A DNA stretch of 64,000 nt from Amoebophrya sp. A120 (GCA_905178155.1 CAJINV010000008.1:3683420-3747419); one strand, 5' to 3'; shown: positions 1-55,700, counted from the first letter of the stretch. Translations and numbers: made by a program. Notes: generated from the sequence alone by a model not told the origin.

Positions 1-1557
1 TCTTGAATTTTTTCGCTCGCAAGGCAACTACTATTTCGAAAATATCTCGTTGGAGCTTTTCTTTTCTCGCACGGTGTATTCGCATTTTTGCTTTGCGAAC
101 GAGATTTAACTGTTGCGAAGGGGGAGCTTCGTTTTCGAAAGTGTTTTATGACGATTGAAACCTGTACCAAATTTTCTGTAGGTCTGTAGCTTTTACACAT
201 TTCACTATCCGTACACTGTGTTGATAACAAACTCGCTGTCTGTAACAACGAAATTAGCTTTCCAAGATTTCAACTTTCTTTGTACCTAGTACCATTTGCG
301 AGCAATTTCCTCGACTGCGCCTTCTAACTCTCTTTGAAAATAAGTCTATGTAAATTTGTAGCAGAAACTAGTTGTCATTTCCAATTCACTTTGTCTAATT
401 TCACTTTGTTGAATCATAGGCCGCTATGATTCTTCATCGCTTCTCAAACTTTCTACCTTTCAAGAATTCAGGAACCTTGCACAAAATAAGTCACACTATT
501 TGCGAAGCGTGTGACTTGTTCAGGTCACTCGTCAGAGGAGAAAAATTCCCTTGTAAAGAAGCCTTCTAGAAGGCTTCGTAACAAATGAACCGAGGAAGCG
601 GATGATGTGTCAACAGACTTCTCCGTCTTGTTTTCGCACAAAAAATTTGCGCACCACTAGCATTTAATGTATGTACACATCCACAACTACGCTGACACGA
701 CAACCCCTGCTGGCGCAGCTCTAATATTATTGAAATATATTGAAGATGAAACTTCTATCTTGTATTTGACGATTTTGCGCAACTCAAGCTCGTTTGTATC
801 TGTCGCAAAAATCATCTGAGGATTGTCTTCTACCTTTACGATGTAACCTTCTACTTCTTGTACAGCAGCTGACAAGCTTTGTAATTGTTTGATGTAAGCA
901 CTTAAACTCAACACCTAAAAGGATTCGGGCGGCGAGCTTGCTACAACGACCTGTGGGCGTGTTCTCTAGGCTGTCACTCTTTTCGTACGTAACGATTTAA
1001 TATGCCGGCGCATGCATTGAGTGTTGCTAGGTTTCGCACATCGCTGGGCGGTCTGATCGTTCGCTGAGGGAACCGGAACTGAACCAGCGGAGAGAGAGAG
1101 CATGCACCGATGATGATCGGATTGTCTTTGTCTTCGTATGTGTATGATCGCTAATATTATCGCTCGGCCTATCCCTACCTACGAACAGAAACAGTTTTCG
1201 TGTCGTTTGCTCTCTTCTGGCTACGATTTCGGTGGCGATTGCTCGTTCGATTCACTTCGATGTTCACCCGTGCCAGAGCGCTCGGATATTCAGATTTCGA
1301 ATTTTTCTAGCATCCGGCAGAACGATGAACAGCTAATTTATTTCACCGTCGCCGTCTCTCTTGTTTTGCTAGTTGCAGCCAATCTGGCCTTCGCTTTGGT
1401 TTTTTCTAGCTTTTACGAAGAAATAAAGTGCAGGCACGGCGGTAAAGCAGGCCAGGCTCTCGTATTTGATACCAGTGTCACTCACAGTCACGACACCACG
1501 GGACGTATTTCATCCCCAAACCAGCAGTAGGCCTAGAGTAAAGACCACTTCGATAAA

Positions 1558-17851: not shown

Positions 17852-17864
17852 GGAGTGAGGGGGA
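17852..17864 (+). promoter_or_regulatory. Polypurine tract
   Basis: ggagtgaggggga, 1 nt upstream of the 3' LTR. Confidence 0.85.
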
Positions 17865-17865
17865 C

Positions 17866-18233
17866 TATGACACATAAATCATCAACCAACGATAAGAACC
17901 TTGATCCACTCCAAAGATCCAAAGCACACCTAAACGGGCACGATCGTCACTAATTCAATTCTACTAGAGTAAGATGACTACTGAACCTGAAACAGGCTAA
18001 GACGGGCACGAACGTCACGGCAAGAATAGTGAAGGTTCCCGAGTGCCCCAGTTTTGCCTGGGCACGCAGTACCATCGACCTTTACTCTTCCAATGAACCC
18101 CAGCCAGGGCCCTTGATGCCAGTCAAGGCACACACACAAATAATCTCTCATGCATATTTGTACCACCTCAGCTAGGTGTTGTTTTTACTCGTAGTGGGTT
18201 CGACCTCGTCGTTGGTTAGTTCGCATCTTCACA
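17866..18233 (+). repeat. 3' LTR (368 bp)
   Basis: Direct repeat of 11189-11552, followed by TSD gttta. Confidence 0.96.
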
Positions 18234-18333
18234 GTTTAGAGAAGGAGGTACTACATCAAACAACCTGAGCCGCGAGCAGTTGTCTGTGGAATTCCACCAG
18301 ACATCACAAGTTTTGCTTGACGAACAGGGATAA
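18234..18333 (+). pseudogene. Displaced original 3' end of the Kelch gene
   Basis: The reconstructed empty site reads GAEF-REGGTTSNNLSREQLSVEFHQTSQVLLDEQG* in the Kelch frame. Confidence 0.75.
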
Positions 18334-21900: not shown

Positions 21901-23136
21901 GCCGAAAAATCGCCTGCAAAAGATTCCACCGCTACAAGCAGTGCCGACGCTGGCGGAGCGTCAGGAGGCGGTGGAGAATCAATGCAAAAGTCGACAAGTA
22001 AAAACTCCACCACCACCTCGTCATCCAGAGCTGCAAGCAAGTCCTTCAGCCACGTGCTACCCCGGTATCTGCAGGAGAGACCCCGCGCCAACTCGGTTGG
22101 AGCGGCTTCTTGTGCGGTAGCTGGCGCAGGAGTCCCGCTTGGTGCCGCGGAGCAGGTCGACACTGGTGGGGGTGTCGCGCTGCAGACTTCCCAAGAGGCA
22201 GATCTGATGAGCCACCGGGTGTCGGTTCCGATCTCGACCTTTGACCCATTTGGCGCTTCGTGCAACGGCGGTGTTGGCATAGGCATGCTGCCAGTGACTG
22301 CAAATGCTGCTGCAATCGAGCATGATGCTAGTATGGGTTTGTTTGCGGTACGTGGAGTGGGAAAACCACAACAACCTGCTCCGGCGTCTTCATCTTCGGC
22401 TCCTACGGCCCCGTCCTCGGGGAACGTACAACCAGGAGCAGAACTACGAGGCTTCTCTCGGAAACCAACCGCAACCTCATCGTCCACATCATCCTCGTCG
22501 CGGGAATTCCTGCAAGAGGATCGCAATGCAATGAAAATGAATGCCAATGCCGTTCCCGGAGCCGGAGCTGTTGATTTTGGAAGTTTTCTGCGCCCAATTG
22601 GAATAAATACGACGTCGACGACCATTTCTGGTAGTACATCGGCCGGCACGGGCACCGCCAGCGCCCCCTGCGCCGGAACCGGCATGGCCAGCATCTCAAC
22701 ACAGCAGGATCACGCTCTGCTGCAGCGACTGCAGCAGCAGGAGAGCAGCTGTACGGGCGGTGCGCTCAAAACAACCCACGTCGAGCAGCAAAGTGCTCCA
22801 CCAGGGAAAAACACGCTGATCATGGCAGCTGCCGGTACGGCCCTGGTTCCCTCAACGCGACCGCCGCTGCCCCGCGCCGGTGCTGTCGCGGAAAGGAGTG
22901 GCAATGCCTACGCAAGCGGCAGCGGCTCGGCTCATGTTCAGCATCGTGGGGCAGCTCTTAAGTCTGCGGGGCTGCAGATGCTGGCTGTGGAAGGGGGGAG
23001 TTGTGTGGTCAAAAGAACATCGCAGGCAATGAATGTTGCTGCGTCTCCAAATGTTGCCACAATTCCGAAGAACATCGGGGGCAACGTGCTGCTGAAAAAC
23101 AAAATACGGACACAGACACTCACGTTGAACCTGTGA
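18916..23136 (+). CDS. Tubulin-tyrosine-ligase-like protein, TTLL3/TTLL8 (glycylase) type
   Basis: [72 protein letters not shown]; long low-complexity insertions. Confidence 0.9.
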   Translation: [1406 protein letters not shown]

Positions 23137-23486
23137 TCATCGAAGTGAGTGCATCTCAAGTAAGATGATGAAATAGAAGATCGATGAAGAAGACCACGAA
23201 GCGGCGCAAGAATCTGTTGAGCGTTGAACGAGATGCTCCTTGTTCCTTACAGCTGGTTGGTGGCTGAAGCTGGGCGAGAGAGAGACTAGGCCACGCACGA
23301 CGGAGCGCAGCGGGTTGGGTTCTCTTTGTAACGAAGCGGTACAACCGGGACCGGGAGGAGCTTCAACATCGTACGTGTTGCAATATATAAAAAGAGAGGC
23401 CGTGGACCTCGATTCGTTGTATGTAAGTACATTTTCATCCACTCCGCGCCTGCGGCTCCTCCTCCGCCCTTTCACCATTGCACAAA

Positions 23487-26400
23487 ATGAGATGCAGATG
23501 TCGTCGTGTTTGTTCTCTCTGGTCCGTCCTTACCTTGCTCTCCACTAGTTTTCTGGTTTGGTGGACGGTTGTGGTCGACGAGAAAGACGACGGAAAAAAC
23601 GTGGCGTTCGTGCGTGTATTTATCCACAGAAGTAGCGACGAGTCCATATCGACCGGCGGGCGATCGGATGGGCGAGGAGGGGAAGAGGCTGAAAGTGTCG
23701 ACGAGGAGCGTGACATCACGCAGCAGCAGGAGCGCTTCGTGCTGCTCCGCAAGTTCCACCAATCCAGCTCTTTTTTCGGCGGTCACAGCCACAAAGCGTT
23801 ATCCGACGCAGTGGACGACAACAATGCCGAGGCAACCACCGCTGGCGCGATGGTGTTCGCGGAAAATGGTGACGCAGCAGCTGAAAAATATTCTGTTGAG
23901 GAAACAGAACCAGGGTTGTCATCGGGTTCAAGCTCACCAAGAGCTGACGAGGTGGACGCAGGCCATGATCAAATACACTACGATAAAAATATGCTGGACC
24001 CCGCCGCGGCGCTTGTTTCTGACGAAAGCCATCGTGTGCGTACCGCACAGTCAACTTTTCGATCTGCGAAGTACCAGGAGCCATTCTTCTACACCACAAG
24101 TAAGAAACAACCCTATCAGCAGAAGATGCCCATAGAAGTGCCGGCATCAGACGACCGCGGCTCAACGACGTCTGCGGGCGACAGCAGGGCAAGCGACGGA
24201 AATGATGGGAATAAAGAGAGGAAAGCGGGCTCTTCAAACTTGAACTCAAGGACTTTCTACGTCAAGGGCTCGAACACTGTCAAGAAAACACTGCGTGTAC
24301 GCCGGATCAAAGTTTTCGAGGACGAGGTTGGAGAAGCAGGACAGGAGGACACGACAGGTAACGTCGCCAGCAAAGCAAAAGCACCGCGAAAGCAACTGCC
24401 GCGTCGTGCTTTGTCCCCCCAAAATCTGTGCCCGCAGGGTGTTGCGAATTTGGAAAAACAGGCTCGCACACGCACGGTTCCAGCGTCGAACATTTTTGTG
24501 CCGATACCTCCCGGCGACAAGGCTGAGAAGGAGTTTCGCGAATCCGTATTTGCAGAAACGTACAACGAGTCGCTTTTCCCGAGGAGTGCAAGAAACAAGG
24601 GAAGCAAAGCGACAGCTTCTGCGACGGTTTCCTCCTCCATCAGCGATCGTGTGAAAAATAAAGCTTCTCCCGGTGCTGGGGTGGTGGACGAGAGCACCAG
24701 AGCGACTACTAGACACCACGACCAAGCCTCAACCAGACGTCCACATGTAGTTGATAATCACGACCCGTTAAACCAAAACCAGCCTAGGGTGACACTGTTC
24801 GATCACGCAGCGCAAGATGCGTCCGTCGCGCTGATCTCGAAGTTTTTGGAGGAGAAGAAAATTCTGCAGCGCGGCTCCCCCACACTCCTCTCCGCCTACC
24901 TGGAGCTGAACCCTCGGGCCTTTCGGAAGGACGTGTGGGCAGTGGCTTTACTCTATTTCTGCGGTGGGCTCACGCTTGACGCAAAAATGTTTCGGCCGCC
25001 GTTTACGAACGAAGACGAACGATTCACGCAGTACAAGAGACCAAGTGTTGAACCCAACGCCGTCGCGTCTGGCGCTTCCGAAAGGTTGAACGACGTCGAA
25101 GGCGGCGGGTTCCAGCTGCGGCCTTTGCTTGAAAATTTCTTCGAGTTCCAGACACTGGGCGATGTTACTAGGGGAAGAAGTAAACAAGTAGGAGATGATC
25201 GTGACGAAGAGCAAGAGATCGGACGGGGCCACCAGGAGCAGGGTCCCAAAACCAAAAATGGAACAAAAGGCAGGAGCGCCAAAGTACCAAGGCACCAGCG
25301 GCAGCCACAATCTACGAACCCAAGACTGCCTCCAAGAAATCACTTTTCGCAGCGTCGTCCGGGCGAAGTGGCGATTTGCTACGATTTTCCGTGGCACGAC
25401 CACCGTACGGTGATGCGTCACAAAACCACGACGTCGACGTCGAAGACCAAAAATCCTTTGCAGCTGATCTTCCTGCAGAACGCGATCTGGGCGACCTACC
25501 CGCGCAACCCGGCGCTGCTGTTTATTTTGCAGCAGCAAATCTGGAATATTTTCCAGCATTCCTACGGCGAGCAGATCTCGAGAGAATTTTTCCGAGCACA
25601 CAAGCTCCTCGCTTACTCGAGCTTGGTGGAAGACAAGGCAGCGAATGTTGGTCCGCGACCTCATCTTGGAGGTGGGCACGGCCGCGCACAACTGCGTGCT
25701 TTGTCCAGCAGTAGCACTGGTGATATCGGCGGTAATGGCGTTCTTGAGAAAACCAACTCCAAGATGGTGAACAGCACAGCCCTAGCTGCTGGAGTTGTTT
25801 CCGGCATCCACCTCGGTAGAAACTTTACGAAAGAACGCGAGGAGCAACAGGCTCGGTGGAAGAAGTTTGAGCAAGCGAAACGGGACGAAGTGTTTGGTTA
25901 TTTGTCTATCACCGGCCCGGGTGCGTTTGCCCAGGGTCTTTTTCGCAGTGCCTGCCTGCGGAAAACCTTCTTGCCCCGGTGCGTCGCGGAGTGGAATATT
26001 CCAGGGGTCCGGGAGCAGGTGTGTGACGCCGCGGTGAAGATGCATAGCAATGATCCTGCACGAGGATCATCTTCATCACGGACGGAGGCGGAGCATCGAA
26101 CCTCCTTCGCCGCCGGCAGCTCCGCGGGCGATGACACTAGCCGCGCACCAGATGAGCGACGTGGTCCGTTCGTCACTGAAGATGACGTTCTCGAAAAGCG
26201 GGAGCTTTGCAAGGCCGTGCAGAAAAAGGAGGTGCTGTGGTACTTTGCGACCTTTGCCAAAGAGTACCAGAAACGCTTCATGGCCGGGCTGGTCGGCTTG
26301 GGCGGAGAGGACGTCGAGGAGAAATGGAATGCATCTTCCTGCGACCACAGCCAACTGATGCGGGAATTTTACGCTGCGGATTTCAAAAAGCAAGATCATG

Positions 26401-34189: not shown

Positions 34190-36949
34190 ATGAGTCAAGA
34201 TTTGCCTGCCGCACGACCTGGTGGGCGCGAGGACATCATCACGGGACGAAACGGAAATTGCCAGAAATTTCAGGAAGCCATTCGGGCGATGCCAAAAGTT
34301 GAGTTGCACGCGCATCTGAGCGGTTCCGTGTCGCAAACCAAGTTGCAGGAAATGCTGGCGAAAAGGGTGGAAAAGGAAAATTTGGATGCGAGGACTCGGG
34401 GAGGTGAAAGAACGCCGGATGGGGAAATCGACACGCTGTCCCAGAAGCGGCCAACTCGCGGCGCTTCTACAACAACGTCAACGTTCGAAAAGTTCGACGT
34501 TCGAAGCATTATTTTTGGCGGAAATAAAACTACGTCGCCCGATGCTGCTCCTGTTTCAACATCTGCACCAAAGTCTTCAGAGGCTGCATCTTCTGCTTCA
34601 TCACGAGAGCAGCTTCTGTACAATGAGGCGATGAAAAAGTGCTTCTCCTACTTCGACCTGGTCGCGCAAGTCATCACGGACCTGGATGCCTATCAAATGT
34701 AAAAATGTCTGGGTCTGGAAGAGTCATGCTGTTTCTGCATGACACAGAAGGTCTGGCATGGAAGCTCTAGCATCACAGGCTTCGAGAAGCTTCCGCAATG
34801 CCGAATCCGCATGACAAATCCCCCATTTTGGTGACAGAAAGTGAGCAGCTTTTGCTGCCTACGCATCAGAGATTTTTGTGTGTTCTGAAATGCGCATCAC
34901 AAGTTACATCCTTCCAGACCCAGACATTTTTACACTTGATAACGCCTTGCGCGAGGCAACGACGCATGTGTTCGAAGAGTTCGCGGACGAGGGTATCCTG
35001 AGTAAAAACGTCCCCATACCAGAGCCAGGATGGAAAATCTGCTAGACAGATCAGCCAACTTTGGTTGTTTCGCCTGACACGTTTGTCCTGGCAGTGTGGT
35101 CCTGTTTAGCTAGTTCAGCAGCATCACAGATCTAGCACACCATGCTACTTCTAGCATCGCAAAACCCAAAACACGACTAGAAAAAGCTTCTCATGTGGCA
35201 TCACATGAGACACTTTTTTGTCATGCAGATTTCCATGACAACTCTGGGGTGGGGATGTTTTTACTCAGAATAGAGGGCTGCGTGTATTTGGAAATGCGGA
35301 CCACCCCGAAAAAGTTCACGCAGCCGGCAGGTCATCAAAAACCGCACACCGGCCCGGCAGGTAGTGCTAGTTGCAGCAGGAACATGACGATTAAATCCTC
35401 AACGTCCTCTTCTATAATTCCAACAACCTCGGAAGAGGATTACATTTGTGTTGTTAAGGAGTGCGCAGACGAGATTTTCCGGAAGAAAAACCTAGTCGTG
35501 AAACTACTGCTGTCCATCAATCGGGGCACGATCCGCTCGAAACAGGACGCGGAGGACCAGGTCGCGATGGTGTCTCGCCTCCTGGATAGATTTTTTTACG
35601 ACCAAGATGGGAGCTCGGAGGGTCGTCAAGATCATGTACAAGCAGGTCAAGAACATGATGATCGCGATCTCCATGCCGTGTCCGGCCCCTTCGTTGTCGG
35701 TCTGGACGTTAGCGGCAATCCGGCGACGGACTCGGTGGTGCCGTTTCTGTTACCCGTTTTGGTCGAAAAGTACCGCGAGCTGGAGAAAATGGGGAAACCA
35801 AAACCGCCAATCGCCTGGCATCTCGGCGAACGGGAGGATCATTGCGTTATTTTGCCGCCCGGGGGACCGAGGACCGCCACGATGAACAAGAACAGAAAAA
35901 TGGGCGAAGGTGGTGGTAAGCACGGCAAAAGCAGCAGTCCACCGCGACGGACAGAAACTCCCGTCGTGGAGGCGAGCACCTCTGATGTGTCTGCAGCTGT
36001 TGCAGTACCAGGACATGGACATCTGAGCACCACTACCACTACGACTACAAGTAGGACAACTAATGTATTGACAGGGACAGGGGTCGTCCACGACGGTGGC
36101 GATCATGATGTTCCCGAACACGACCAGGAGCCGCCTGAGAGGAAGCGGCGGAAAGAAGTTCTGGTGTCTTCACGGTCCTCAGGCCGCTGCGCAGAAGTAG
36201 TAGTAGATGAACTTCAACTTCTTTCTTCATCCTCCACCCCCGCGGCGGAAGTAGAAGTAGATAAAGTTCTGGACCACGTCGACGTGCTAAACATTCGTCG
36301 GCTCGGACACGTGTGCTTTCTCACCGCCGAGCAGCGCCGCCGGGTGTTTGCCATCGCGGACAGGAGGACAGCAAATGAGCTGCCGTTTTGCGTGGAGCTC
36401 TGCCCGACCAGCAACGCGGTCACAAAGTGTCTGAGGAATCTAGCCGACCACCACTTCCCACTCTGGTACGCCGGGTCGTCGTGCAAGAGAAAAATAAACG
36501 GCGGCGAGGGCGGAGCCATGTCAACATCGTCCTCTGGCGAAGTAGCAGCTCTCCCTGACAAGAACGCGCCGTCGGACGAGGTGGCTTCGGCCTCAGCACC
36601 TCCTTCGCAGCTGAGAGTCGCCCTCTGCACCGATGACACGGGGCTGTTCTGCTGTACCATCAGCTCCGAGCTAGAGGATATGGCCGTCGCGTTCCGCTTG
36701 TCTCTGGCCGAGCTGCGGCAGCTCCAACTCGATGCCATAGACGCGAGCTTTCTGGTCAGAGGTGGGCCTCCACCAGGCAATCACGCCAAAGGCGGGTGTC
36801 GCGAAGCGACTTCAGTCATAGCGGGCGGCGCATCGGCTACAACCCCGGTATCTGCAGGAGAGACCTCGCGCCAACTCACTTGGAGCGGCTTCTTCTGCGG
36901 TAGCTGCCACAAAGACAATTCCAAACATCGGGGGGAATCTGTTGCTTAA
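34190..36949 (+). CDS. ADAL: Adenosine deaminase-like protein (ADAL/MAPDA family); last exon interrupted at ~36841
   Basis: MPKVELHAHLSGS, EGCVYLEMRTTPK, KLLLSINR, VVGLDVSGNP, WHLGE, RLGH, VELCPTSN, LCTDDTGLF. Introners 34691-34941 and 34994-35272. The present stop at 36949 lies inside cassette 1. Confidence 0.9.
34691..34941. mobile_element. Introner family A
   Basis: Family A TIRs; DR atgcc/acgcc; restores TDLDALREAT. Confidence 0.93.
34994..35272. mobile_element. Introner family B
   Basis: tatcctgagtaaaaacgtcccca / tggggatgtttttactcagaata; DR gaggg; restores FADEGCVYLE. Confidence 0.93.
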
Positions 36950-37914
36950 AAACAAAATACGGACACAGACACTGACGCTGAACCTATGATCATCGAAGTG
37001 AGTGCATCTCAAGTAAGATGATGAAATAGAAGATCGATGAAGAAGACGAGCCGGCGCAAGAATCTTTTGAGTGTTGATCGAGATGCTCCTTGTTCCCTAC
37101 AGCTGTTTGGTGGCTGAAGCTGAGCGAGAGAGAGACTAGGCCACGCACGACGGAGCGCAGCGGGTTGGGTTCTCTTTGTAACGAAGCGGTGCCATGAGGA
37201 GCTTCAACATCGCACGTGTTGCAAGAAAAAAGGAAGGACACGACTAAGCATGTACAAAAACTAGTTCTGGCCGTCGATCCCGGTTCGTTGTACATTTTTA
37301 CCCATTCCCCTGCGGCTCTTGCGCCCTTTCACCATTCATTGCCCAAAATGAGATGCATATGTCGTCGTGTTTGTTCTCTCTGGTCCGTCCTTACCTTGCT
37401 CTCCACCAGCTTTCTGGTTTGGTGGACGGTCGTGGTCGACGATCCTGACGACGGAAAAAACGTGGCGTTCGTGCCTGTATTTATCCACAGAAGTAGCGAC
37501 GAGTACATATCTACTGGCGCGCGATCGGATGGGCGAGGAGGAGAAGGGGCGGAAAGCGTCGACGAGGAGAGTGACAAGCAGCAGGAGCGCTTCGTGCTGC
37601 TTCGCAAGTTCCACCAATCCAGCTCTTTTTTCGGCGGTCATATTAGCCAGAAAGCCTTATCTGACGCAGCAGACGACAACAATACCGAGGCAACCACCGC
37701 TGGCGCGATGGTGTTCGCGGAAAATGGTGACGCAGCAGCTGAGCAATATTCTGTTGAGGAAACGGAACCAGGGTTGTCATCGGGTTCAAGCTCATCAAGA
37801 ACTGACGAGGTGGACGCAGGCCATAATCAGCGCTACGATAAAAATATGCTGGACTCCGCCGCGGCGCTTGTTTCTAGCCATCGTGTGCGTTCCGCACGGT
37901 CGACTTTTCGATCT
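36842..37914 (+). pseudogene. Cassette 1: diverged copy of TTLL fragments, intergenic DNA and the GT32-like 5' end
   Basis: Aligns by eye to 22061-22123 joined to 23056-24069. Confidence 0.93.
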
Positions 37915-38871
37915 GCGACTTCTTTCATAGCGGGCGGCGCATCGTCTACACCTGCGGACATACCAGAATCTAAACTGCGTCCCTGGATCAAAACGTTTAG
38001 ACCAGACGAGGAAACGTTTAGGAATATCTCTAAACTTCTAAACTTGAGTACCTGTAGGTAGTGTCTGTAGTAGGAGGCTGTAGCTGTCTTTGTGAAAGGT
38101 TTTAGCTGTAGTTGTTGGACATAGTCTAAAACGATCTAGGTAGGAACTAGGCAAGAGAAGTGGAACAGACTGAGGCAGAAGAGGGAAGGAAGATTCTCTT
38201 CGGCACTCTGTCATGTCCCTTCTCTGTAACTCTCTCTCTCTCTCTCACTCATTTCCCGCAGGTTTTTATATATTCATTGTTTTGTTGGATGTCGAGCCAT
38301 TGCCAAAAAGCGTACGCGAGGCCGATCCGTGACCAAGATGGCAGTTTGAGCAGGTGCACTAAACACGCACTGCTGAAGATCCGCGCGCGTTTCGATTCTG
38401 TGAAAAGATCCACACGATTGAAGACCTGTTGCTGTCTTTTTCCGCAGTATTCGCTTGTGACTAGTCACCTATGATGGCCGTGCCGCCTGTACTTTTGGTG
38501 AGAAGAATGACTCTAAGGCCCCGCCCTGCGTCTTCGGATGTTGTGGTGGTTAGGTATGGCGCCAGTTTTGGGCCAAGCTCAGCGCTTGTTTGCAAAAAAA
38601 AAAACACAGGAACTACAGCACAGGAACGAAAGAAAGTTTGCCGCTGTACCATACGGAACATTTCACAACTTTGCAACACTGCCAGAAAGTTTGTTTCTAA
38701 GAACGCTAACCCTTGCACACATCAGCCTACATACTCTTTTAGACTTTTGAGACAGACTAGAAAAGTAACGACCGGACCGGGGCCCTCCATCGCGCGCGGA
38801 CTTTTGGCGCTAGCACTAGCAGCACACCCAATAACCCACCCGCCGGGGCAACATTGTCTGACATCCGAGCC

Positions 38872-39135
38872 TATGAGATGCAAAAATGTCTGGGTCTGGA
38901 AGAGTGTGAACTTGTCACGCAGGTTTTCCATGACCCCTATGAGCTGTAATGGATGACCTAGCATGACAGATTCCGCAAGATCACTGTCGTGCCTATCCTG
39001 CATGAGAAACTCCCTCCCAATTTGGTCGAAAGTGGACAGCTGTAGGCACTCACGCAACACAGATTTTTGCATGATTCGGATTTAGCATGACAAGTTGCAA
39101 TGATCTTCCAGACCCAGACACTTTTGCATTTGATA
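38872..39135. mobile_element. Introner family A inside cassette 2
   Basis: Family A TIRs; DR gagcc. Confidence 0.92.
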
Positions 39136-40729
39136 GAGCCGGGGGCAATGGTCGGGAATTTTTTGGATGACCTTTCCGAGGAGGAGCCTGCGGGGCGTGG
39201 CCGCTCCGTAGCGCCACCGGGCAGCCAGCACTCGTCCGTGTCGGATATCGTGGAGGCCAGCGGTCGTGGACTTACGCAATCACGCCAAAGGCGGGTATCG
39301 CGAAGCGACTTCAGTCATAGCGGGCGGCGCATCGGCTACACCTGCGGTTAATTTTCATTCTCAATCGATAAAGAGCTAAGTTCGCCCGAGCTGACACACG
39401 ACTCGGTGTGCACCTGGTCGATGACCTCGCGCTGAGGTCTAGCACTGGCGCGTTCGTAGCGCGAACACAAATTCCGCTCTAAATGCGGGTCGCGCAATAG
39501 AGATGCACCTACGAGCTGCGAGAAGAAGGCAGCTGCGAGCTGCTCTGCGCTTTCACGACGCGCACAACATTGCTCGTAGGGAGCTGTTTTGGGTAGGACG
39601 TGCGTGCGCACGAGGTGATTTTGTATCATTCCCGGTCGCCGCATATCACAATACCCAATCGCCGAGTGCGTCGACCGTCTAAGGTGCTGCCCGGCCCAGC
39701 CACCATATTCTAGGTGGCCGGGCAGGACGAGGAGCTGAGGGTCACGCGACGACAAGAAGTGGAGCGTGACCCCTACCACGGGCGCATGCCGTGCGGGGCG
39801 GATCCTCGCACGGACTGTATCCGGTCGGGGAGGGCTCACCACTCCGTCGGCCCCCCGACCACCCCAACATCGGGCGTAGCTTGTTTCAAGTACAAAGAGC
39901 TGCGGCTTTCAACTACAGAGATATCGGCGCTGCTGCGGGTGTTATCGGTGCCATGCAGCACCCTTTTTCTCATTCAGTCTCATTCTTGAAGTTCTATCTG
40001 AAGCATCTATCAGCCGCATTCTGCGGTACTCTCGTGCCAGGTGGCTGTAGAAGTACGCTCTTGCGATAATTTACGACAATCCTCTCGAGATTGAGACGCG
40101 AAACCCTGGGTGGTGTTATTATTACGCTTCATTTTAAATGCTACTTCGAGCACAATACAGTGCTAATTTTAAAATTTAAAATTAGCTGGCCGCGAAATCA
40201 TATCGATTTTCTAAAAATTGCGATAGTTCCCCCCTCTATTTTGAAGGGGAAAACGCGCGAAACTTCAGTCATAGCGGGCGGCGCATCGGCTACACCTGCG
40301 GACAAAATTTTTGGTTAGCAGACCAGAATCTCAACTGCAGCAAATCGTCTCAACGTTGAGCCAGAAGGTAGCCAACGTTGGGAAAAGTGTCTCAACTACT
40401 CAACTTAATAGAAGTAGAAGTAGAAGTAGTTCAAGCGTACAAGTAGAAGTAGAAGTGGGTGAGGCTAGATCGATCTAGAAGGAGTCGTGGTAGAGAAACT
40501 GCAGCAGAAGGGAAAGCACAGTGACAAGCAGGCAGAAGATGGAAAGAGGGCAGCGCCGTCTCTTTCTTGTCTCTATCTGGCTGTGTCGTTTCTCTCTCTC
40601 TTGTCTCTATCTGGCTCTCTCATCTCCTCCTCATCTCTTTCTCTCTCTACCCTCTCTTTCACCCTCTCGCACATCCATATCTTTGGTGTGTCAGAAATCT
40701 AACTTGAAGACACAAAGAAGACAAGACTC

Positions 40730-40870
40730 GTATTGCTCGACTGCGCTGTAATTTTGTCCACCGATTTCGACGATCCGTTTGTATTGCTCGACTGCGACGA
40801 TCCGTTTGTATTGTTTGACTGCGACGATCCGGTTGTATTGCTCGACTGCGACGAGCCATTTTGTCCACCA
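40730..40870. repeat. 27-bp tandem repeat (gtattgctcgactgcgacgatccgttt), 3 copies plus a partial
   Basis: Units at 40781, 40808, 40835; partial at 40730. Confidence 0.85.
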
Positions 40871-41264
40871 GAGCCCGATCCATGTTGTCCAAAGAACCAC
40901 AGGAGGGCCCTTGTCGTCGCCTTTCTCTTTTTTTGCCATTTTCTACATGAGGCCGGCTTGTGGTTCGATGTCAGAACCACACTCCGACCACTGCGCGCAG
41001 CTGTCCAGCGAGCAGTGCCCCTCTCTTTTCTCCAGCCAGGTTTGTTGTAGTTAGTACACTTAGGCAGGTTGTGTTGTAGTTAATCGAAAAGCATCAGTAT
41101 TGCATTTTGAAGTAAACAAAACTAACTACTACTTGTACTTGACTACTAAAAGCTATAACGGATTTAAGTAAAGCCATCGGGCTCGAAGATACAAAGTCAC
41201 AGGGAACCACCACCCGCCTCCGGGGCATCAATTACTTAGCGCGAGTTGCTGCGGCGCGAGAAGC

Positions 41265-42358
41265 ATGAGCTCCGCAGAAAAAGACCCGCCGGTGCGTGGG
41301 CGCTCCGCAGCACCCCCGGGCAGCCAGCACTCCGTATCCGACTGCGTCGAGGCCGGCGCTGGGCTGACTCCCTTGGTCGCGAGGATCAAGAAATGCAGCA
41401 CATCGGTCGGGAAAGAGCTGATCATGCGCGCGATCGACAAAGGGGAAAAGGAGTTTGAACGTTTGAACCTGCGAGAGGCGTGCGGGAAGCGGCGTCTCTT
41501 CGCCAATGACCTTGACGACATGCTGAAGCCGCAGGCGGACGAATTGCTGCAGGCCTCCCTACCAGCGCAGGGCCTTCTTCCCAAGCAACAGCGTCTTCTT
41601 CCGGGTCCGCTTATCAAATGCAAACATGTCTGGGTCTGGAAAATTTCGGGAGTTTGTCATGCAAATTGGACAAGGCCTCCCATGCCTGTGATGCATTCTC
41701 TAGCAACACAGATTTCTCACAGGTTTGCTCATGTCTATTCTGCATGAGAAGTGCTCTTTTTGAGTAGCAGCAATCACGCAATACAGATCTGCAGCAATCA
41801 CGCAATACAGATCTTTGTGCGATCGACAGCTAGCATCACAAATCCCATTCTACTTGCCAGACCCAGACATATTTGCAATGAATGCCGCTTGTGAACATGC
41901 AGGTGCAGGGGCTTGGCCCAGGGCAGGGGCTTCCTGGGCCCAGGGCAGGGGTTGCTCCCTTGGGCCCAGGGCAGGGGCTGCTTGGGCCCAGGGCACGTGG
42001 GCCCAGGGCAGGGGTTGCTTGCCCCCAGGGCAGGGGCTGTTTGGGCCCAGGGCCGGGGTTTCTTGGGCCCCCCCCGGGCAGAGTTTCGGCCCAGGGCAGA
42101 GGTTGGGCCCAGGGCAGGGCTAATGTCCCGCAGGCACTACAAAACGCGCCAGAGCATGCGGACTCGCCCGCGTTGTTTCTGCTTTGGCTCGTGTTTTGCC
42201 ACCCATATTCTCGCCTGCTTGCCTACCCCCCTACTGGGTGGCTCGCTTCTTTGCAGTTTCTTCGCATTTCAGTCATAGCGGGCGGCGCATCGGCTACACC
42301 TGCGGACAAAAATGGCTTCAGTTCGAATCAGATTATCAAAACGAAATCAGATTATTAA
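41265..42358 (+). CDS. Putative cassette-4 ORF of unknown function with GPGQG repeats (interrupted by an introner)
   Basis: MSSAEKDPPVRGRSAAPPGSQHSVSD... joins in frame across introner 41612-41884 to LVNMQVQGLGPGQG repeats; a homologous fragment lies in cassette 2. Confidence 0.45.
41612..41884. mobile_element. Introner family A inside cassette 4
   Basis: Family A TIRs (right end atg); DR ccgct. Confidence 0.88.
41905..42120 (+). repeat. tgggcccagggcagggg minisatellite (about 10 degenerate units)
   Basis: Directly visible; translates as GPGQG repeats. Confidence 0.85.
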
Positions 42359-42620
42359 AATCAGGTTAGAGATAAAATCAGGCTACTGAAATCAGAATAT
42401 CAGTGAAATCAGATTGATTGTCATCAAGGTAGTAAGTGCAATCAAGTTGTAAAAGAAAAAGCAACCAGGTAAGTCAATCTCAATGCTTTACCTCTTTCTC
42501 CTTCTTTCATGAAATATTATCCCAAACAAAAAAACCCGTGATGAAGACTCAGGACCGACGAAGCCGCTGGCGGTCGCAAACTCACCCGCCTTGTCTGATC
42601 GAAAGAATCCATGCCGTGGA

Positions 42621-42702
42621 TCTCAAACGCAAATATGTCTAGATCTGGAAGAGTGTGGTGCCAGACGGACCTTTCCAGGCCCAGACCCGTTTGCGCCCGA
42701 TA
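42621..42702. mobile_element. Internally deleted family A remnant (82 bp)
   Basis: tctcaaacgcaaatatgtctagatctggaa ... ttccaggcccagacccgtttgcgcccgata; no DR left. Confidence 0.55.
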
Positions 42703-43618
42703 ATTCGCAGCAAAGAACCAAACTCCGAACACCGGCGTGGAACTCGAAAAGACGAAGAGACAGCTTATGTTCGACTATGAGGAAGGCCACGACCCCGGGT
42801 CGGGGTCGGAAAACCATGCTCACGAGCAGGAGTGTCTCCAGCTCAACCTGAGAAAGTGCCAAGAAAATAAAGCAGTACGACCTGTGTGGGCCGAGGGTGA
42901 TGGTTGTTGAGGAGCGCCCTCCTGACGTTTCTTCCTCTTGGCCATTGTCGCTGACACGAGTGATGCGGGCGGGGGTTGATTGGGGGGTCTCGGGAAGAGA
43001 AGCCGGAACTTTGTCCCCTTCGAAAGAGGCAGAGTTCCGGTTGCCGCTGGGGGGAAGACAAGCAAAGCCACTTACTTGAAGAACGAATGACATCGCGCTG
43101 ACTTCCCTGTAGCGGAAGCCGGGGCATCGCCTCTGTCGAAAGACGAGGCGAAGCTCCGGCTTCCGTTGCGGGCGGGGAAGCCAAGAGCATCAACTTCTTT
43201 GAAGAAAAAAGGGACTGCGTTGAGTTCCACGCAGCGGAAACCGGCCCTCCGCTTCTGTCCGCTATGGGGAAGAGAAGCGGACTTATATATTGCCACGCAC
43301 GTTGTGGCAGATACCTGGCCGCATGGCCGGGAGTAGATGGCACAGCAGCAAGGCTGCAGTCCTCCGGGGGTCGTCGCGTTCTGGTCGGCACTCGTCAAGA
43401 GCTTCGCCGACCAGGAATCGAGGAGAGCGACGTGGGGAAGTGCACCGCAGTGTGGAGGTGCTGGAAGGCGGGGATGTGGGGAGGGCGGAAAATACCTCTC
43501 CACCTCTTCACCACTGGGGAGGCACCCCCCCACACGTGGGGACGGAGGTACCTCCCCAGTGTGGGGGGTAGGGAGGTGGGGAAGTTGATCCGTGGGCAGG
43601 TGATTCACACCATAGCCC

Positions 43619-43855
43619 ACTTCAGTCATAGCGGGCGGCGCATCGTCTACACCTGCGGACAAAAATTTTCAAGTGCAGCATCAACACGACGATCACTCTT
43701 CTAGTGCCACGAACAACAGCATACTTCCCACATCTGCTCGCGCAGAGAATAAAGATGATTGCAAAATGAACACAACGAAGCACAGCCCGAGAGGACAAGC
43801 GTCTAACTGTTTGCGAACAGAGTTGCTACAAAGGATCCTTGCGTTTTCTTGTTAA
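43619..43855 (+). pseudogene. Probable original ADAL 3' end, displaced by the cassette array
   Basis: In the ADAL frame, the last repeat continues TSVIAGGASSTPADKNFQ...CLRTELLQRILAFSC* for 79 codons, ending in a plausible terminal helix. Confidence 0.65.
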
Positions 43856-45407
43856 TAGTACATACGGCGCGGGCGCAACGATCTAAAAGTAAAAGCGAAT
43901 CGAATAAATGAATTACGTGCGCTCGTCTCAGCGTTAACTCCGATCATTTTTTGCTTTGCGGCACGCGATTCATTTTGCAATAAAGTAACGCTGTCGACGT
44001 CCTGTTCACACTGGCAAAAGCGCTGCTCTTCAATTTTTGCTTGATCTTGATGTGGAGATCATCGCACAGACGTAGCGTAGCTGTTGTACTCCGATCTGGA
44101 TGGTAAATAGGACGAGATCCGCCGGCCTCTTTGTCAGGATAACTCAACAGTCGTTTTCAGGCACCAAAGATCCTTCAATTTAGCGGCTCTAAGAACAATT
44201 ATTTTGGATCGACGTGTATTGTTTTTGATTTTACCCACATGACAGACCATCAGTGACGTCCACTTTCTTACGTGGTGATATTTTCCATCAATGTGAAAGA
44301 AGTTTCTTCCAAAAAATCACCTCACAGAGACTACACTTGTAACGGTGAATGATAGACTTCTCTATAGTAGCCAGTACACTAGTTTCTAAATCGATCCACA
44401 AACGACAATAACAAGATTTTTTTTGTACTAGATAGTTGAAACATATTTATACGATTGAGGTTCTCCTTCTCTCCTCCCATCGTGTAGCACCTAATTTTTT
44501 CACTATAGTTTTAGGTCGCCACTTTGTACGACTCGGAAAAAAACTGCTATATAGGAAGCAAAGACTTTCTGCAGTGAGACTGACAGTGTGAGCACTCTCT
44601 TAAGCTCGTGTAAGATTGTTTTCAATATGATAGAGGACCGAAGAATAGACGGATGGCGGAGTTTATTACGGTATCTTTACTAGAACTATAGCTGTCGCAC
44701 AGTTATCGTATGTTTTTACTATCCGCGAGCTGAAAATTTTTCTACACGCATAATGTCGATACACATATACGAATATAGAACATCCCTCCGATATACAAGC
44801 AACACCAACACGTTCATGCCAGGGGGAGTCGCTTCAAGAGGCATACTTACACGAGGACTTGACAAGAAAATAAGATAAGAATCTCCAGGCAGGACGTAGC
44901 TACACGAGTAGTCTAGGGCTTCATCCAAGAAGAAGAAAAGTAAAACACCTCTATGCTCTCCCGCGGCACCTGTACAGTGGCACACTTCGGCTACGGAACG
45001 ATGCCAAGGAACGAGTACAGTATCGGCGACATTTGTTCTCCCCAGCAGAAAAACAACACGTTTTTCGTAGCTTTAACCTTTTCATCCTTTTTTCGAAAAA
45101 GACGCAAAGACGCCGCTTTCATCGGCGGACAACATAACGACGCGGACGCTCATAATAAAGACCCACCACGTGATATTTCTTGTATTTGTTGACGGCACGA
45201 CACCCACACCGTTTCTGTTTCAGTCCGATGGGTAAAACGGATCCTTCGCTCTTTTTGGAGCCCGTGGCGGACACAGCATCACTTTTTTTTTCCTGTGCGA
45301 CCGACGACCCTTAAGAATAAGATCGTAACCTAGTACTACACGACCCATCTTCATGCCTGAGTCGCGACCGCGTTGGCGTTCCCCGTCCCCGCTCTACACG
45401 ACCCATC

Positions 45408-48400
45408 ATGCCTGAGTCACGGTCCCCGCTGAGGATGAACTTTTTAGAAGCAGGCTCCCCGCCGTTCCTTTGTGCCGCGGCGGTAGACTCTGCACCCACG
45501 CGACCCGCAGCTCGTCCGGAATTGGATATGACAGAAACTGACATTGGTGGCGCTGGCGGCTTGAGTGCATGCACACCAGTAGGTGACGAGCACCCTTTGC
45601 AAGGCCAAAGTGAGACTGTCACCGTCGCGCGCGCTCCTGCTTTGATGCAAGCGCAACCGGTGCGCGCCAGTGCTGTAGCTCCTGATGCCGCGGCAACTAC
45701 CGACTCTGTTTCCGCTGTAGTACCTCCTGTTTGCGGACCGTCACTGCCTGCGTGTGCCACCGGCGCTTCTCCCGGCGTGCTTCCTACGCGCATCCGAGTA
45801 GAAGGGGGGTTTACCCTTCTTGGCGACAACATACCCCCCGAGATCCTTCGCCAGTATGACAAAAAGTCAACCTCGATGTCATCCAAACAAGTAGAAGTCG
45901 GCGCGCAGCGGAAAAAGAAAATGAATCCCCAAGATGAAGAAGAACGAGGACCAGCACAGGAAAAAACTGTTCCCGTTCCATATCAACGCCAGCATCTGAT
46001 GCGGCAAACGTGTCAAAATCTAGGGAACGACCAGGAGAGTAGTTGTACAAGAACTGGTGCCCTCAACATCAAAACAAGTTTCTCCCAGGAAGATGATTTT
46101 TTCCTGCAGGAGGAGCAGTCTGTGTCTGTGGTTGCGGCGCACAAGAAGAACGTAGCGCGGCACCAAGAACATGAACAGGACGATCCAGATGCTGAGGATG
46201 AGCAACTAAGAATCGTCAACTACCGCAGAAAAAGTAGTGGGACCGATCCGGCGAACAATGTAAAAACAACTACTAGTACTACGACTTTGATCATGCGGCG
46301 GAAATCCACCTCTGCGAGCCTGAAGACCGGTGATGCTTGTTCTAGTTCACCACTAGGACAAAAACTACAACCACAGCAGCACGACGTGCTGCGTGGCGGG
46401 CAGCACAAGAATATCATGATGATCCACCAGATGAACAAACGGGAAGTACTAGCTGGTCAACGTGAGCAAGGTGGTAAAGGAGTAGTGCAGCATTATAATC
46501 AGCAGCACTACACGACGAGAGTTGTAGAAGTAAGCACACCCGCAAACTCTTCCCCATCTTCGCAGTACTTCCCCAGGACGCCCTGCAGTGGTTCTCTCCA
46601 GCACGATTGGGTATTTTCTGCCTCGCGGCGCAAGTGGACCCGCGGCAGCAGCAACCAGGAGCTAGTCCTGACGCCCGTCGCGGGAGGGGCCGCGGGAGCA
46701 CGTGAAAGAAGAAAAGTTGGTGCAAGAAGTGGAACAACAAGAACAGCAACAGGTCAACAACAGGATCTTCCAGACCACATTTGTAGTTCCTCCCCGGTTT
46801 CCACCACGTCTTCGGACGTGATTCTGCGGGCCTGCGTCTCCAACGTGGTGGACGACTTGGACGCGTGGACGCTCTGGCGCGCGTGGGACGCCTATTACAA
46901 TGAAAAATGCCCCCACTCCCGAATTTGGGAGCATTTGTATTGCAAACCTTTCCAAATGAAACATTCGCCCTCTTGCATCTATCAGCATCACAGGTTTCCG
47001 ATCGTGAATAGCAAAGATTTGTATTGCAAAAGACCCCAGCAAGAGCGGCGCTTGTCATGCAAGCGATGCGATACACGCCTAGACTCTGCATCAGAAAGGT
47101 TCGTAAGTACTCCTTTCATGCATGACAAAAACTTTTCACTTGGAAACTTCGCATCACAATGTTTTGCAACTTTGGGGGTGGGGGCATTTTTCATTATGAT
47201 AACGCCCTGCACGGGCTGTCGCCGCAGGATTTTTTTGACTGCGAGGAGGAGGAGAAGGCCATCCGGGAGGTCTTCGCCTTCCGTGTATCAAAAGGAAAAA
47301 TCCCCCCTCCCCATATCGAAACGAAGTCTCTGATGCTGGATTTCCGTACACAAATGAGATTTGTCTTGCAGTAGAGGACTGCAGGCATATGCCAAGCCTC
47401 AGTCGAGAGGTTTTGACGTAGGCGCCTAGCATGACAAACGTGTATGCTCTAAGCCCAACAGCATCACAAACCGCCTGCAAAATGTGGGGCGCTCTCTGGA
47501 CTTGGCTTCTTGCAAGACAGACACGATTTGAGGTCACAAATGCGCATCACAAATTTTCAGACGGATACGGTTTTAATATGGGGAGGGGGGATTTTTCCTT
47601 ACGATACCGTGCGGCGGAAGCGGCGGAAAAGCACGACAGCGTGCTGTTTGCGGAGCTCGGCTTGATCATCGCAGGCGGCAAATCGTGGTCGGCCGAGAAG
47701 CTGCAGAAGCTGTTGGACCGGCAAGCCGTCGTGGCGCGCGGTATGCACAGCGTCAGCTGCGGTGGCGCGCAGACGCCCAAAATGTTGTTGAAACTGGCCC
47801 GCAACGAAGGCAGTGGCTTGGTTGGTCATCAACAGATGCAGGACAACATCCAAGAACGGGGCGGCCGCGGCAACGCTAGTCCAGTCGTGCTGGAGTACAA
47901 CAACCACCGGAAGGGAAGCAAAGGAAGTGGTGCCTGTGGAGGTAGCAAAGAAAGCGCAGGTGGTAGGAGGTCATCTGCTCGTCTCATGTTAACGGACCAC
48001 GACCCTGGCACTTGCAAGGGCGGAAATACTGCTTCTGGTACTTCTCGCACATCACCTGCCGGCGGACCGTGTGAGGACAAAAATCTTGTTGGCACGAATA
48101 ATATTACGATGAATACTGATGATGTTTTACAACAAGATGCTGTTGCTGGACCTCCCGCACCACTACTTCCCATCCCGACTACCAGTATGAATCTGTTGAT
48201 GCACGAATCTAGCTTGGCGTCGCGGCTCCTCTCGATGAAAAATGCCGATCATGCGACGTCGAACTCGGTCAGAACTGCAGGGCAGGCACCGGGCGGCCAC
48301 GACGGTTCTTTGGTTCATCTTCCCAGTGGAGTACCTACTTCGACGAGCAACAGCAAGATGCTGCACAAGAACGAGAAAAAAACGAAGCCGCTCCTTGGGA

Positions 48401-54400: not shown

Positions 54401-55700
54401 CCCGGCGGTAAAAGAAGTACTGGAGGACCCTCCCCGGTCTTGTGCGGCGCAAGAAAACCAGGAGTGCAGGAACAAACGCCGAGGTGTCCTCGTCCGAGTT
54501 CGCGCGCAGGAAATTCATCTTGTCAAAACCTCCTTGATATCAATATCCGCGGCCACACACAATCAGGAGCATTGGATCCGAGCGGCAGTCCGCTGACTGC
54601 AACAAACACCACAATGAGTACCACACCGGGCGGGACTGTGCCTCTAGAGGACCACCTTCTTCAAAGCGGTTGCACTATTGCAGCTGATGCTGGCATAGCC
54701 AGTAGTACAAGTAGAACGCGGATGAACTCGAACTTTTCAACATCGATTGCAAAGCTGCAGGGCGGGAACAGCTGTGAAGGAGATAATTCCATTTTTGCCA
54801 GCAGTGGTGCCTTGTCTAGTACTACGACAAGAACTTCCGGCAATAGAGAAAGGGATAGTAGATTGACCAGCAGGAGCAGCGATCAGTTTCTTCATGGCTG
54901 TTCCGATACAATTCACGAGGACGTTGTCGGTCTGGTTCCGGTATCTACTGCAAAAGTATCGTATACTTGTACTACTCGCAATTATCTTGCATGAAAGGTT
55001 TAATACTTTCCTAAATTCTATGTATTTGATAGATTTTGATCGTTATATGCAGTTACTTACTGCACAACATCAACATGATCCATGAAAGAGCTTAGCGTGA
55101 GGCTACACAGAAACGCCACGTATTTTTAAAGCGGTTGATGATGATGAAGATGGTGATGATGATGCCGTTACGACTAGTAGTACGCTAAACTTTTGCAATG
55201 CATAAGCGGCAGAGGGAGCTAGTGGTCCTCGTACAACCAGGGGCGCGACCACTACCGGCCGAACAACCACGACCGGCAGCACTGGTTTCATGCTAGACAG
55301 CAACGTGAACACACCGACACCAAGAACGCCACGACCTCGTGGGCGCGACGGGGGGCAGCAGCGACTGCTGTCAGAGCAGACCACACCAGAGAATATTTAC
55401 GCGCCATCAGAGCGCTATTCGGAGGAGTTTCTGCGGAAAAACGCCCATTTCGGCAGAGAGGTCGATCACGAAGAAGTGATCAGCAGGGAAATGATGTTGA
55501 CGAACAAACATTGTTCATCAACGCCGGACCGGCGGCCGGGCCATGTCGAATCCTGTGACGCAATTGACGTGATCGTGAAGCCCGGTGACGTACTGTACAT
55601 TCCCAAACACTGGTGGCACTATGTGGAATCGCTCACCACCTCCGCCTCGCTCTCCTTCTTCCAGCACCGGAATTTATCTGGGTATTTCAATTTGGCATAA
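45408..55700 (+). CDS. Giant JMJD5/KDM8-like JmjC (cupin_8) oxygenase, 7 exons, ~2871 aa
   Basis: ELGLIIAGG, LYLAQLPV, LFLGPAHTVTDFHYDPTDNFFVQLVGYKFFRLYPP (HxD), VKPGDVLYIPKHWWHYVESL. Removing six introners (+5 nt each) leaves 8616 nt in frame. The start codon is uncertain. Confidence 0.82.
46893..47201. mobile_element. Introner (family B-related)
   Basis: tattacaatgaaaaatgcccccac / gtgggggcatttttcattatgata; DR acgcc. Confidence 0.92.
47286..47606. mobile_element. Introner family D
   Basis: tatcaaaaggaaaaatcccccctccccatat / atatggggaggggggatttttccttacgata; DR ccgtg; homologous to 50510-50830. Confidence 0.93.
49125..49403. mobile_element. Introner family B, inverted relative to 34994
   Basis: tatcctatgtaaaaacgtacccacacc / ggtgtggggacgtttttacaaatgata; DR acgtc. 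Confidence 0.92.
50510..50830. mobile_element. Introner family D
   Basis: Same length (321 bp) and TIR as 47286-47606; DR gagct. Confidence 0.93.
50866..51019. mobile_element. Short introner (tatcctgtgcaaaag type)
   Basis: Ends cttttgcatttcata; DR acgga; restores GLTEELDQK. Confidence 0.88.
54942..55204. mobile_element. Introner related to 50866
   Basis: tatctactgcaaaagtatcgta / tacgctaaacttttgcaatgcata; DR tccgg/agcgg; restores GLVPAEGASG and joins the last JmjC exon. Confidence 0.82.

Follow-up and report, generated by a model that had tools for sequence, protein, structure and literature searches.

How does one short stretch of a protein-coding exon come to hold a stack of kilobase-sized inserts, and what becomes of the gene that carries them? 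The question is raised by ADAL, an adenosine deaminase-like gene of the marine parasite Amoebophrya sp. A120, within the 64,000 nucleotides of DNA analysed here (referred to as the window). A first-pass annotation of this DNA described six same-orientation copies of a ~45-bp repeat separating five cassettes. The starts of the copies and the counts of a 19-nt repeat core bear this out, and the array is real. The inserts likely interrupt the true last exon of ADAL, and the explanation that we tentatively prefer is recurrent breakage at one spot of this exon followed by templated repair.

Repeat copies and inserts in ADAL

Repeat positions were numbered from the A of ACTTC (position 1), and boundaries were measured against an in-silico empty site. 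Position 1 of the six copies falls at 36809, 37918, 39308, 40262, 42266 and 43619, and the 19-nt core occurs six times in the window versus 0.03 expected, with none of 100 shuffles reaching six. The gene and the array are laid out as follows (TIR, terminal inverted repeat; ORF, open reading frame).

34190..36841, plus strand: ADAL up to the first insertion (Pfam A_deaminase, E 6e-07)
about 34691-34944 and 34994-35274: TIR introners interrupting ADAL, 265-280 bp
~36777-43858, plus strand: array of six same-strand repeat copies and five inserts, likely in the last exon of ADAL
36777..36841, plus strand: repeat copy 1, positions -32 to 33, contiguous with ADAL
36842..37914, plus strand: insert 1, 22059-22123 joined to 23059-24069 (blastn 94% and 85%)
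37915..37960, plus strand: repeat copy 2, positions -3 to 43 as assembled; -3 to 45, with no TT change, would fit the read contigs
37961..39275, plus strand: insert 2, unnamed repeat family, a leader and ORF start cut inside the ORF, with an introner at 38871-39136
39276..39347, plus strand: repeat copy 3, positions -32 to 40
39348..40261, plus strand: insert 3, no donor in the window, first part with a ~90% identical relative in reads
40262..40312, plus strand: repeat copy 4, positions 1 to 46, or to 51 allowing one change
40313..42267, plus strand: insert 4, of the insert 2 family, ORF from 41265, introner at about 41612-41880, 22-bp GC minisatellite
42268..42313, plus strand: repeat copy 5, positions 3 to 48
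42314..43618, plus strand: insert 5, ~960 bp of unique DNA joined to the 3' 345 bp (43277-43622) of a dispersed element
43619..43669, plus strand: repeat copy 6, starting at position 1, in frame with the tail
43619..43858, plus strand: probable displaced 3' end of ADAL, 79 codons, likely terminal helix at 43811-43849, two stops

Insert lengths of 1073, 1315, 914, 1955 and 1305 bp agree to within 2 bp with those first reported. A stretch of exon is indeed repeated at each junction, but the ~45 bp originally assigned to it is not a fixed length: the target duplications flanking inserts 1 to 5 are 36, 75, 40, 49 and 48 bp, and both junctions vary among inserts, with left ends at 33-51 and right starts at -32 to +3. 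Copy 3 also duplicates 32 bp of ADAL lying upstream of the repeat core. LTRs (long terminal repeats) and introners aside, no other inserts flanked by long repeats lie elsewhere in the 64 kb, and searches of viral and metagenome contigs did not turn up the repeat. Unusual conservation of the repeat was not established, P ranging from 0.002 to 0.33 with the divergence and the version of copy 2 used. Two identities for the repeat were dropped: an LTR end, the Copia element of the window being unrelated to the inserts, and a small nuclear, transfer or ribosomal RNA target, the single Rfam match being at chance level (E 0.36).

The frame beyond the array is probably the end of ADAL

ADAL of the window is annotated as the 739-aa protein P0002 of Amoebophrya sp. 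A120, whose annotated C-terminus reads into insert 1. As the first-pass annotation had it, the ADAL frame enters copy 1 and resumes from copy 6, where it stays open for 79 codons and terminates in LRTELLQRILAFS. In seven distant homologues a helix directly follows a conserved 'SF', and the annotated end of P0002, which was aligned with 4 homologues, is without such a helix. Scored against a 13-column homologue profile of this helix, the tail reached 8.3 (82 of 5000 shuffles) versus 0.3 for the annotated end (1115 of 5000). Homologues scored in leave-one-out fashion gave 9.2-24.5, and 51 of the 127,918 six-frame 13-mers match the tail score or better.

Complex prediction docks the tail helix on the ADAL barrel (residues 33-37, 185-186 and 658-675) with a score of 0.87 versus 0.01 for the best of 3 controls, the annotated end not being among the controls. 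The docking mark is passed by 51 of 78 solved pairs and by 2 of 108 mismatched pairs, and halves of a split gene tend to pass it through likeness to solved structures, which is the very point under test. Docking runs share at least 72% of contacts, with a partner pLDDT (predicted local distance difference test) of 59. These results support the claim that the repeat is host coding sequence regenerated at each insertion, and suggest that the tail after copy 6 is probably the real end of ADAL. Because each flank of the array lies on one read contig (see below), and taking the helix profile and docking together with this, the inserts likely interrupt the true last exon. An empty site in a close ADAL orthologue was looked for without success, the nearest homologues being at 39-42% identity.

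Insert 1 is a copy of a neighbouring locus

Insert 1 has its source in the window itself.

22059..24069, plus strand: donor locus of insert 1, of which ~930 bp (22124-23058) are missing from the copy

The source lies 13-15 kb upstream, running from the last part of a TTL-family gene through intergenic DNA into the beginning of the next ORF; it was copied as two ordered pieces, and the insert ends mid-ORF. It matches the donor at 896 of 968 aligned letters (7.4% divergence), and its intergenic part differs at 25 of 316 letters (7.9%). A 4-nt microhomology with the target, GCGA, marks the right (return) junction, the chance of at least 4 nt being 1.6%, and the internal deletion has a 2-nt microhomology. 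This hallmark of template switching, a nearby donor combined with microhomology junctions, was seen in insert 1, the only insert whose donor could be read. The ORF in insert 1 has a pN/pS (ratio of non-synonymous to synonymous change) of 0.37, which differs from 1 (P 0.001) and does not differ from the 0.5 of a neutral copy (P 0.17). The captured gene fragment (37348-37960) is still open, its four indels all being multiples of three, and it enters copy 2 in the ADAL frame.

Inserts 2 to 5 are of mixed origin

Inserts 2 and 4 are homologous, with an alignment score of 437 versus 262.5 for the best of 30 shuffles. Their starts lie at most about 15 bp apart, and their right ends differ. Judging from its codon changes (10 synonymous versus 7 non-synonymous over 26 codons, pN/pS 0.28), the plus-strand ORF start that they share is real. 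For the insert 4 ORF no relatives were found among longer proteins, 1.84 billion representatives, viral contigs or the ESM Atlas, nor a sequence relative in the PDB (best E 1.2), and its single-sequence structure model has a pLDDT of 53.7. The frame of insert 4 runs into copy 5 in the ADAL frame, and the insert holds two minor repeats, the 22-bp GC minisatellite at 41912-42119 and 27-bp tandem repeats at 40763-40861. Inserts 2 and 4 also carry 265-bp TIR elements. These are of introner type, and six more members or relatives of their family occur in the window. A similarity between inserts 3 and 4 was not accepted, its z of 4.2 coming from only 20 crude shuffles in 56 comparisons.

The first ~960 bp of insert 5 lie on a single low-depth contig (42282-43306, depth 20.3). 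The element end that follows is strongly structured (RNA fold of 346 nt, z -4.95, 0 of 100 shuffles) and closes with a hairpin (z -1.8) and TT, an ending that is weak or absent in the other four inserts. Other copies of this element have different 5' neighbours, and one continues into a T-run without the repeat. The element precedes a T-run there and so carries no att-like site, which speaks against the parallel with attachment (att) sites and integrons that was drawn at first. A 54-nt relative of the element occurs in reads at depth 224, its terminal hairpin was not found in viral contigs, and an 81-aa frame of the insert has no Pfam, NCBIfam or PDB match. Degenerate 116-bp palindromic repeats occupy 42999-43259.

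Every insert of readable direction is sense to ADAL. The absence of an integrase, reverse transcriptase (RT), Rep or Cas ORF from the array holds, since the cassette frames (20 and 15) gave no near-threshold Pfam or NCBIfam match at E<=10 (best E 0.13-0.22). No RT or endonuclease ORF was found in the array, and no tyrosine or serine recombinase among the 28 window ORFs or the cassette frames.

Read contigs fit an array longer than the assembled one

As described in the accessible part of PMC7789003, the A120 assembly is Illumina-based with gap closing, and Nanopore reads were used to cut chimeric scaffolds. In DNA run X1, which perhaps consists of the assembly's own reads and would then not be independent, the flanks of the array are long unbranched contigs, one each for the ADAL side (35245-36806, depth 21.3) and the tail (43634 onward, 29.1). 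At least 8 of the 12 junctions are present in read contigs (6 in X1 and 2 more in X3, an RNA-like run described below), and one further junction is deduced from a contig end. Among the matches listed, no read contig spans the whole array. Depth in X1 is 20-62 over the inserts versus 21-29 over the flanks, that is, at or above flank level. It is roughly twice the flank depth over insert 1 (about 40) and over the starts of insert 2 (61.6) and insert 4 (52.5), read depth here not being copy number by the tool's own warning. Contigs and assembly disagree at 37078, 37754, 37891, 38116, 40859, 41293 and 41360, where the assembly letter is mostly T, which suggests that ties between nearly identical, collapsed copies were broken in this way.

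Simulated as a k=31 graph, the assembly in its present form reproduced the end of insert 3 and missed five breakpoints observed in X1. By contrast, a model with the read version of copy 2 and a doubled insert 1-2 block matched 6 of the 6 breakpoints compared; without the doubling, the simulated ADAL contig ends at 36828 versus the observed 36806. Because the doubled model matches the observed breakpoints, an extra copy of the insert 2 end together with upstream repeat sequence exists, most simply as a collapsed tandem unit. Five stacked inserts, as first described, are therefore what was assembled, but the breakpoints fit a longer array.

The first-pass annotation had also considered that the repeat might be the end of a dispersed transposable element. 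Depth summed over the repeat is ~200-550 versus ~10^5 for introners, and its downstream flanks are known inserts or the tail only, among the matches listed. Judged from the read contigs, this low depth and the lack of unfamiliar flanks speak against a dispersed, high-copy element end.

RNA-like reads and the probable displaced end

Compared with X1, run X3 is depleted of introners and is without DNA upstream and downstream. Six contigs in total fall on 43251-43880, none of them over 43461-43607, the stretch that leads into copy 6 in the genome. A 329-nt contig holds copy 6 and the tail without differences and opens with three letters unlike the genome, and the tail is covered at depth 14.2. 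Two further contigs, of 36 nt (positions -3..33) and 43 nt (4..46), run without a break across the points at which the ends of inserts 3 and 4, as placed in the genome, would come in. Simulated repeat-to-repeat transcripts, from the ADAL exon to inserts 1, 4 and 5 and to the tail, give contigs of 36, 43 and ~329 nt, and a simulation of colinear read-through fails to reproduce the X3 contigs. In X3 the tail is preceded by something other than its genomic neighbour, the pattern expected of repeat-to-repeat joining, and we lean slightly towards a real RNA joining of the displaced ADAL end. The X3 contigs themselves cannot bridge the repeat. The 3' ends of ADAL in RNA sequencing data, which had been proposed as a check, are covered in an RNA-like run, but a spliced-leader or trans-splicing origin, or clipping in the graph, is also possible. 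RNA runs X9 and X10 match the window almost only at introners and are uninformative on this locus.

The repeat holds no GT-AG pair that would allow an exact join. According to the portion of PMC7789003 consulted, more than 60% of A120 introns are non-canonical, introners are bordered by direct repeats, U1 small nuclear RNA is undetected in Amoebophrya, and the removal of non-canonical introns is an open question. Two acceptor-like motifs are present in the repeat, TTCAG at positions 1-7 of the plus strand, preceded by a pyrimidine tract at copy 5, and a T-rich CAG motif at positions 36-51 of the minus strand. From the motifs alone, either could be usable in cis- or trans-splicing.

Recurrent breakage with templated insertion as a tentative explanation

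Our preferred account, to which we give somewhat less than an even chance, is that a recurrent break at one spot of the ADAL exon was repaired by templated insertion, that is, by template-switching synthesis. We favour it because the junctions vary, a donor lies close by, microhomology is present and the cargo is chimeric. Each round would begin with a nick or break within the 45 bp, and the left end would be extended to position 33-51. A microhomology of 2-5 nt would then allow a switch to another template, either the locus 13-15 kb away or a repeat element, and synthesis would return to the target at -32 to +3. Each round would leave an intact target, so that the cycle could be repeated, and unequal recombination between repeats may have doubled the insert 1-2 block. 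Insert 2 must be older than insert 1, because its right copy repeats the ADAL sequence from -32, which could be templated only from an ADAL-adjacent copy. Either polarity of insertion requires one extra conversion event. The breaks could come from a nuclease encoded elsewhere or from hairpins at the site.

36782..36810 (positions -27 to +2), plus strand: pair of short triloop DNA hairpins, lying just upstream of repeat position 1 and reaching over it

These hairpins are a possible fragile structure; the fold of 36770-36815, one among six junction windows folded, has a z of -2.22, equalled by 4 of 200 shuffles. The 7-kb interruption might be tolerated through non-canonical splicing bounded by the direct repeats. 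The complete scheme would make a single-copy exon a self-regenerating capture site, recut perhaps by a mobile-element nuclease, stacking mixed inserts and spliced from repeat to repeat. The array of 7 kb or more would then be a giant non-canonical intron, whose alternative exits restore the last helix or swap C-termini. As a whole we consider this scheme possible but doubtful.

Several points weigh against this account or its parts. Two of the five inserts are members of the same family whose starts differ by no more than about 15 bp, and the right end of insert 5 is the natural end of an element, so element-driven insertion fits better than random capture. Four of the five right junctions fall within -3 to +3, as expected of a nuclease nick, and all readable inserts are sense to ADAL. 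No source of the breaks was identified, the hairpin signal being modest (z -2.2, one of six windows). Introner duplications in A120 are 2-11 bp, with none in many rows, in the part of PMC12130899 covered (57 of its 58 A120 rows). For the displaced end, the 13-column profile was built post hoc, once the motif had been seen; a first summed-alignment test of the tail helix was not significant (599 of 2000 shuffles), and the hmmsearch alignment stops short of the tail. For the RNA, the status of X3 is a guess, no run being recorded as RNA and X3 being the sole RNA-like run examined finely, and the repeat-to-repeat model was built to fit X3. The X3 pattern could also arise from spliced-leader addition at the TTCAG of each repeat combined with clipping of short tips, which assemblers perform. 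Deleted alleles in that culture, or RT template switching, remain as further alternatives.

The main rival, which we regard as unlikely though of real weight, is a site-specific non-LTR retrotransposon protein acting in trans, of the kind found in CRE, SLACS, R4 or R9. The corresponding scheme, equally unlikely in our view, has a nick near position 1, microhomology priming on the 3' ends of its own or other RNAs, and, 33-51 bp downstream, a second nick of variable position; the target is then regenerated by the long duplication. Right junctions clustered at -3 to +3 in four of five inserts, with left junctions spread, are as such a protein would leave them, and the sense orientation of the readable inserts fits too. 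Insert 5 fits as well, having a structured end with terminal hairpin and T-run and a variable 5' extent, and it is the sole insert that looks 3'-anchored. Non-LTR elements are present in A120, and CRE, R4, R8 and R9 make target duplications, according to the parts seen of PMC7789003 and PMC3636483, respectively. However, inserts 2 and 4 share their 5' ends and differ at the 3' end, the reverse of target-primed reverse transcription, and there is no poly(A) or common 3' tail, the longest 3' word common to the inserts being 8 nt. In addition, insert 1 contains intergenic DNA and stops mid-ORF, the array frames hold no RT or endonuclease remnant, and the target is a single-copy exon without an Rfam match.

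An RNA-guided nuclease element of the Fanzor/TnpB kind is improbable. The right end of insert 5 would be its scaffold and the abutting repeat its guide, ADAL-proximal copies being recut and mis-repaired. It would account for a strongly folded, multi-copy element end of 346 nt abutting repeat position 1, and for insert 1, which adjoins ADAL, being younger than insert 2. A loose pattern of Cys-x-x and Ala-Asp lies upstream in one frame, matched by eye to the TnpB motif. Against it, neither the frame nor the RNA has a Pfam, NCBIfam, Rfam or PDB match, the window holding a fragment of the element only; the target in copy 1 is still intact; and Fanzor goes unmentioned in the papers listed by a search for it in dinoflagellates.

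Quite improbable, too, are circular elements that use the repeat as attachment site for a tyrosine or serine recombinase, as genomic islands and integron cassettes do. The repeat-cassette-repeat layout resembles them, and casposons and att-site elements use one target in tandem (PMC4779613, in the part consulted), but the overlap differs at both ends for every insert, the insert 5 element is present elsewhere with no repeat beside it, insert 1 is ordinary host DNA joined through microhomology, and the recombinase search of window ORFs and cassette frames was negative. The more general proposal of the first-pass annotation, a dedicated trans-acting system of site-specific integration, is not demonstrated by these data: the junctions shift, insert 1 is neighbouring host DNA and no enzyme was found in the array.

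We give little credence to non-autonomous Helitron or Helentron rolling-circle elements, which favour TT as a target, inserting repeatedly and carrying flanking DNA. Capture of gene fragments is typical of them (PMC4067079, part seen), and insert 5 ends in a hairpin and TT, with another copy preceding a T-run. Yet no 11-15 bp subterminal inverted repeats were found, terminal and subterminal inverted matches longer than 8 nt being absent from 25 pairs of 100-bp insert ends; 5' TC and 3' CTRR ends are lacking, and long duplications are unknown for such elements. Finally, that the array is largely an assembly artefact, in which the repeat served to chain alternative alleles or unrelated contigs that carry it, is very improbable: gap closing in an Illumina assembly, the letters that differ between contigs and assembly and the lack of an array-spanning contig among the matches listed would allow it, but at least 8 of 12 junctions recur in read contigs, insert depth is no fraction of flank depth (with the caveat on copy number given above), and chimeric scaffolds were cut using Nanopore reads (PMC7789003, as above).

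Significance and neighbourhood of the array

If templated insertion did recur here, the locus would be an uncommon natural example of a single-copy gene capturing DNA repeatedly at one site. Its six long direct repeats, without hairpin-forming termini, would allow a direct test of whether, and across what span, repeats alone can guide RNA joining. The families found among the inserts indicate mobile elements yet to be characterised. Should RNA joining fail, the locus would still be an unusual hot spot of repair or insertion, of narrower interest.

Elsewhere in the window, an apparently intact Copia-type LTR element (11189-18234) has 365-bp LTRs that are 98.6% identical and a single frame of 1986 codons with integrase and RT domains. 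Introner-type TIR elements of ~250-280 bp start at 2269, 5015, 10774, 31007, 34688, 34994, 38869 and 41609, with a remnant at 42623; several lie inside coding frames, and their read depth is ~10^5. A second repeated element of 320 bp, at 47286-47606 and 50510-50830 between long ORFs, forms an 83% identical pair and is probably another introner family. A JmjC/cupin gene (50756-55700) and a Kelch-repeat gene (8801-10324) are also present, and the ORFs of the window that match Pfam all lie on the plus strand.

Comparison with known systems

Microhomology-mediated break-induced replication (MMBIR) and polymerase-theta joining produce templated insertions and small tandem duplications, normally as one-off events. 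The array resembles them in the copy of a nearby locus, the microhomology junctions, the duplicated target and the chimeric cargo, and differs in that at least five rounds occurred at the same 45 bp of a germ-line exon.

SLACS is a site-specific non-LTR retrotransposon with a long target duplication. Long target duplications are also described for CRE, R4, R8 and R9 in the available part of PMC3636483 (R9 from a reference title). As in CRE, R4, R8 and R9, the long duplication, here 36-75 bp, regenerates the target and permits stacking. Those elements, however, target multicopy RNA genes and insert 3'-anchored copies of themselves, whereas the array sits in a single-copy exon with mixed cargo, its inserts 2 and 4 share 5' and not 3' ends, and it has no RT.

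Introners of Amoebophrya share with the array the same genome, insertion in coding sequence and direct-repeat borders, and the non-canonical introns of Amoebophrya share with it a possible RNA removal without GT-AG. By contrast, introners have TIRs and 2-11 bp duplications and are dispersed, while the array inserts lack TIRs, have 36-75 bp duplications and lie at one site (PMC7789003 and PMC12130899, in the parts consulted). Tandem casposons and att-site islands likewise comprise several elements separated by a shared target copy, but in those the duplication has one set length for each element, TIRs or att sites are present and an integrase is encoded (PMC4779613, part seen), none of these features being found here. 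A 3' stem-loop and a T-rich target, seen for insert 5, and captured gene fragments are likenesses to Helentron/HINE elements as portrayed in the accessible text of PMC4067079; unlike them, the array is without subterminal inverted repeats, and long duplications are not a Helentron mark.

No closer parallel appeared in the parts seen of PMC12220804 or PMC8557442, and no published description of this locus or of such an array was found in the literature searched, most subscription journals being outside its reach. The array fits the defining features of none of the families compared. It is best placed as a variation on known processes, templated insertion or long-duplication stacking, possibly combined with non-canonical splicing.

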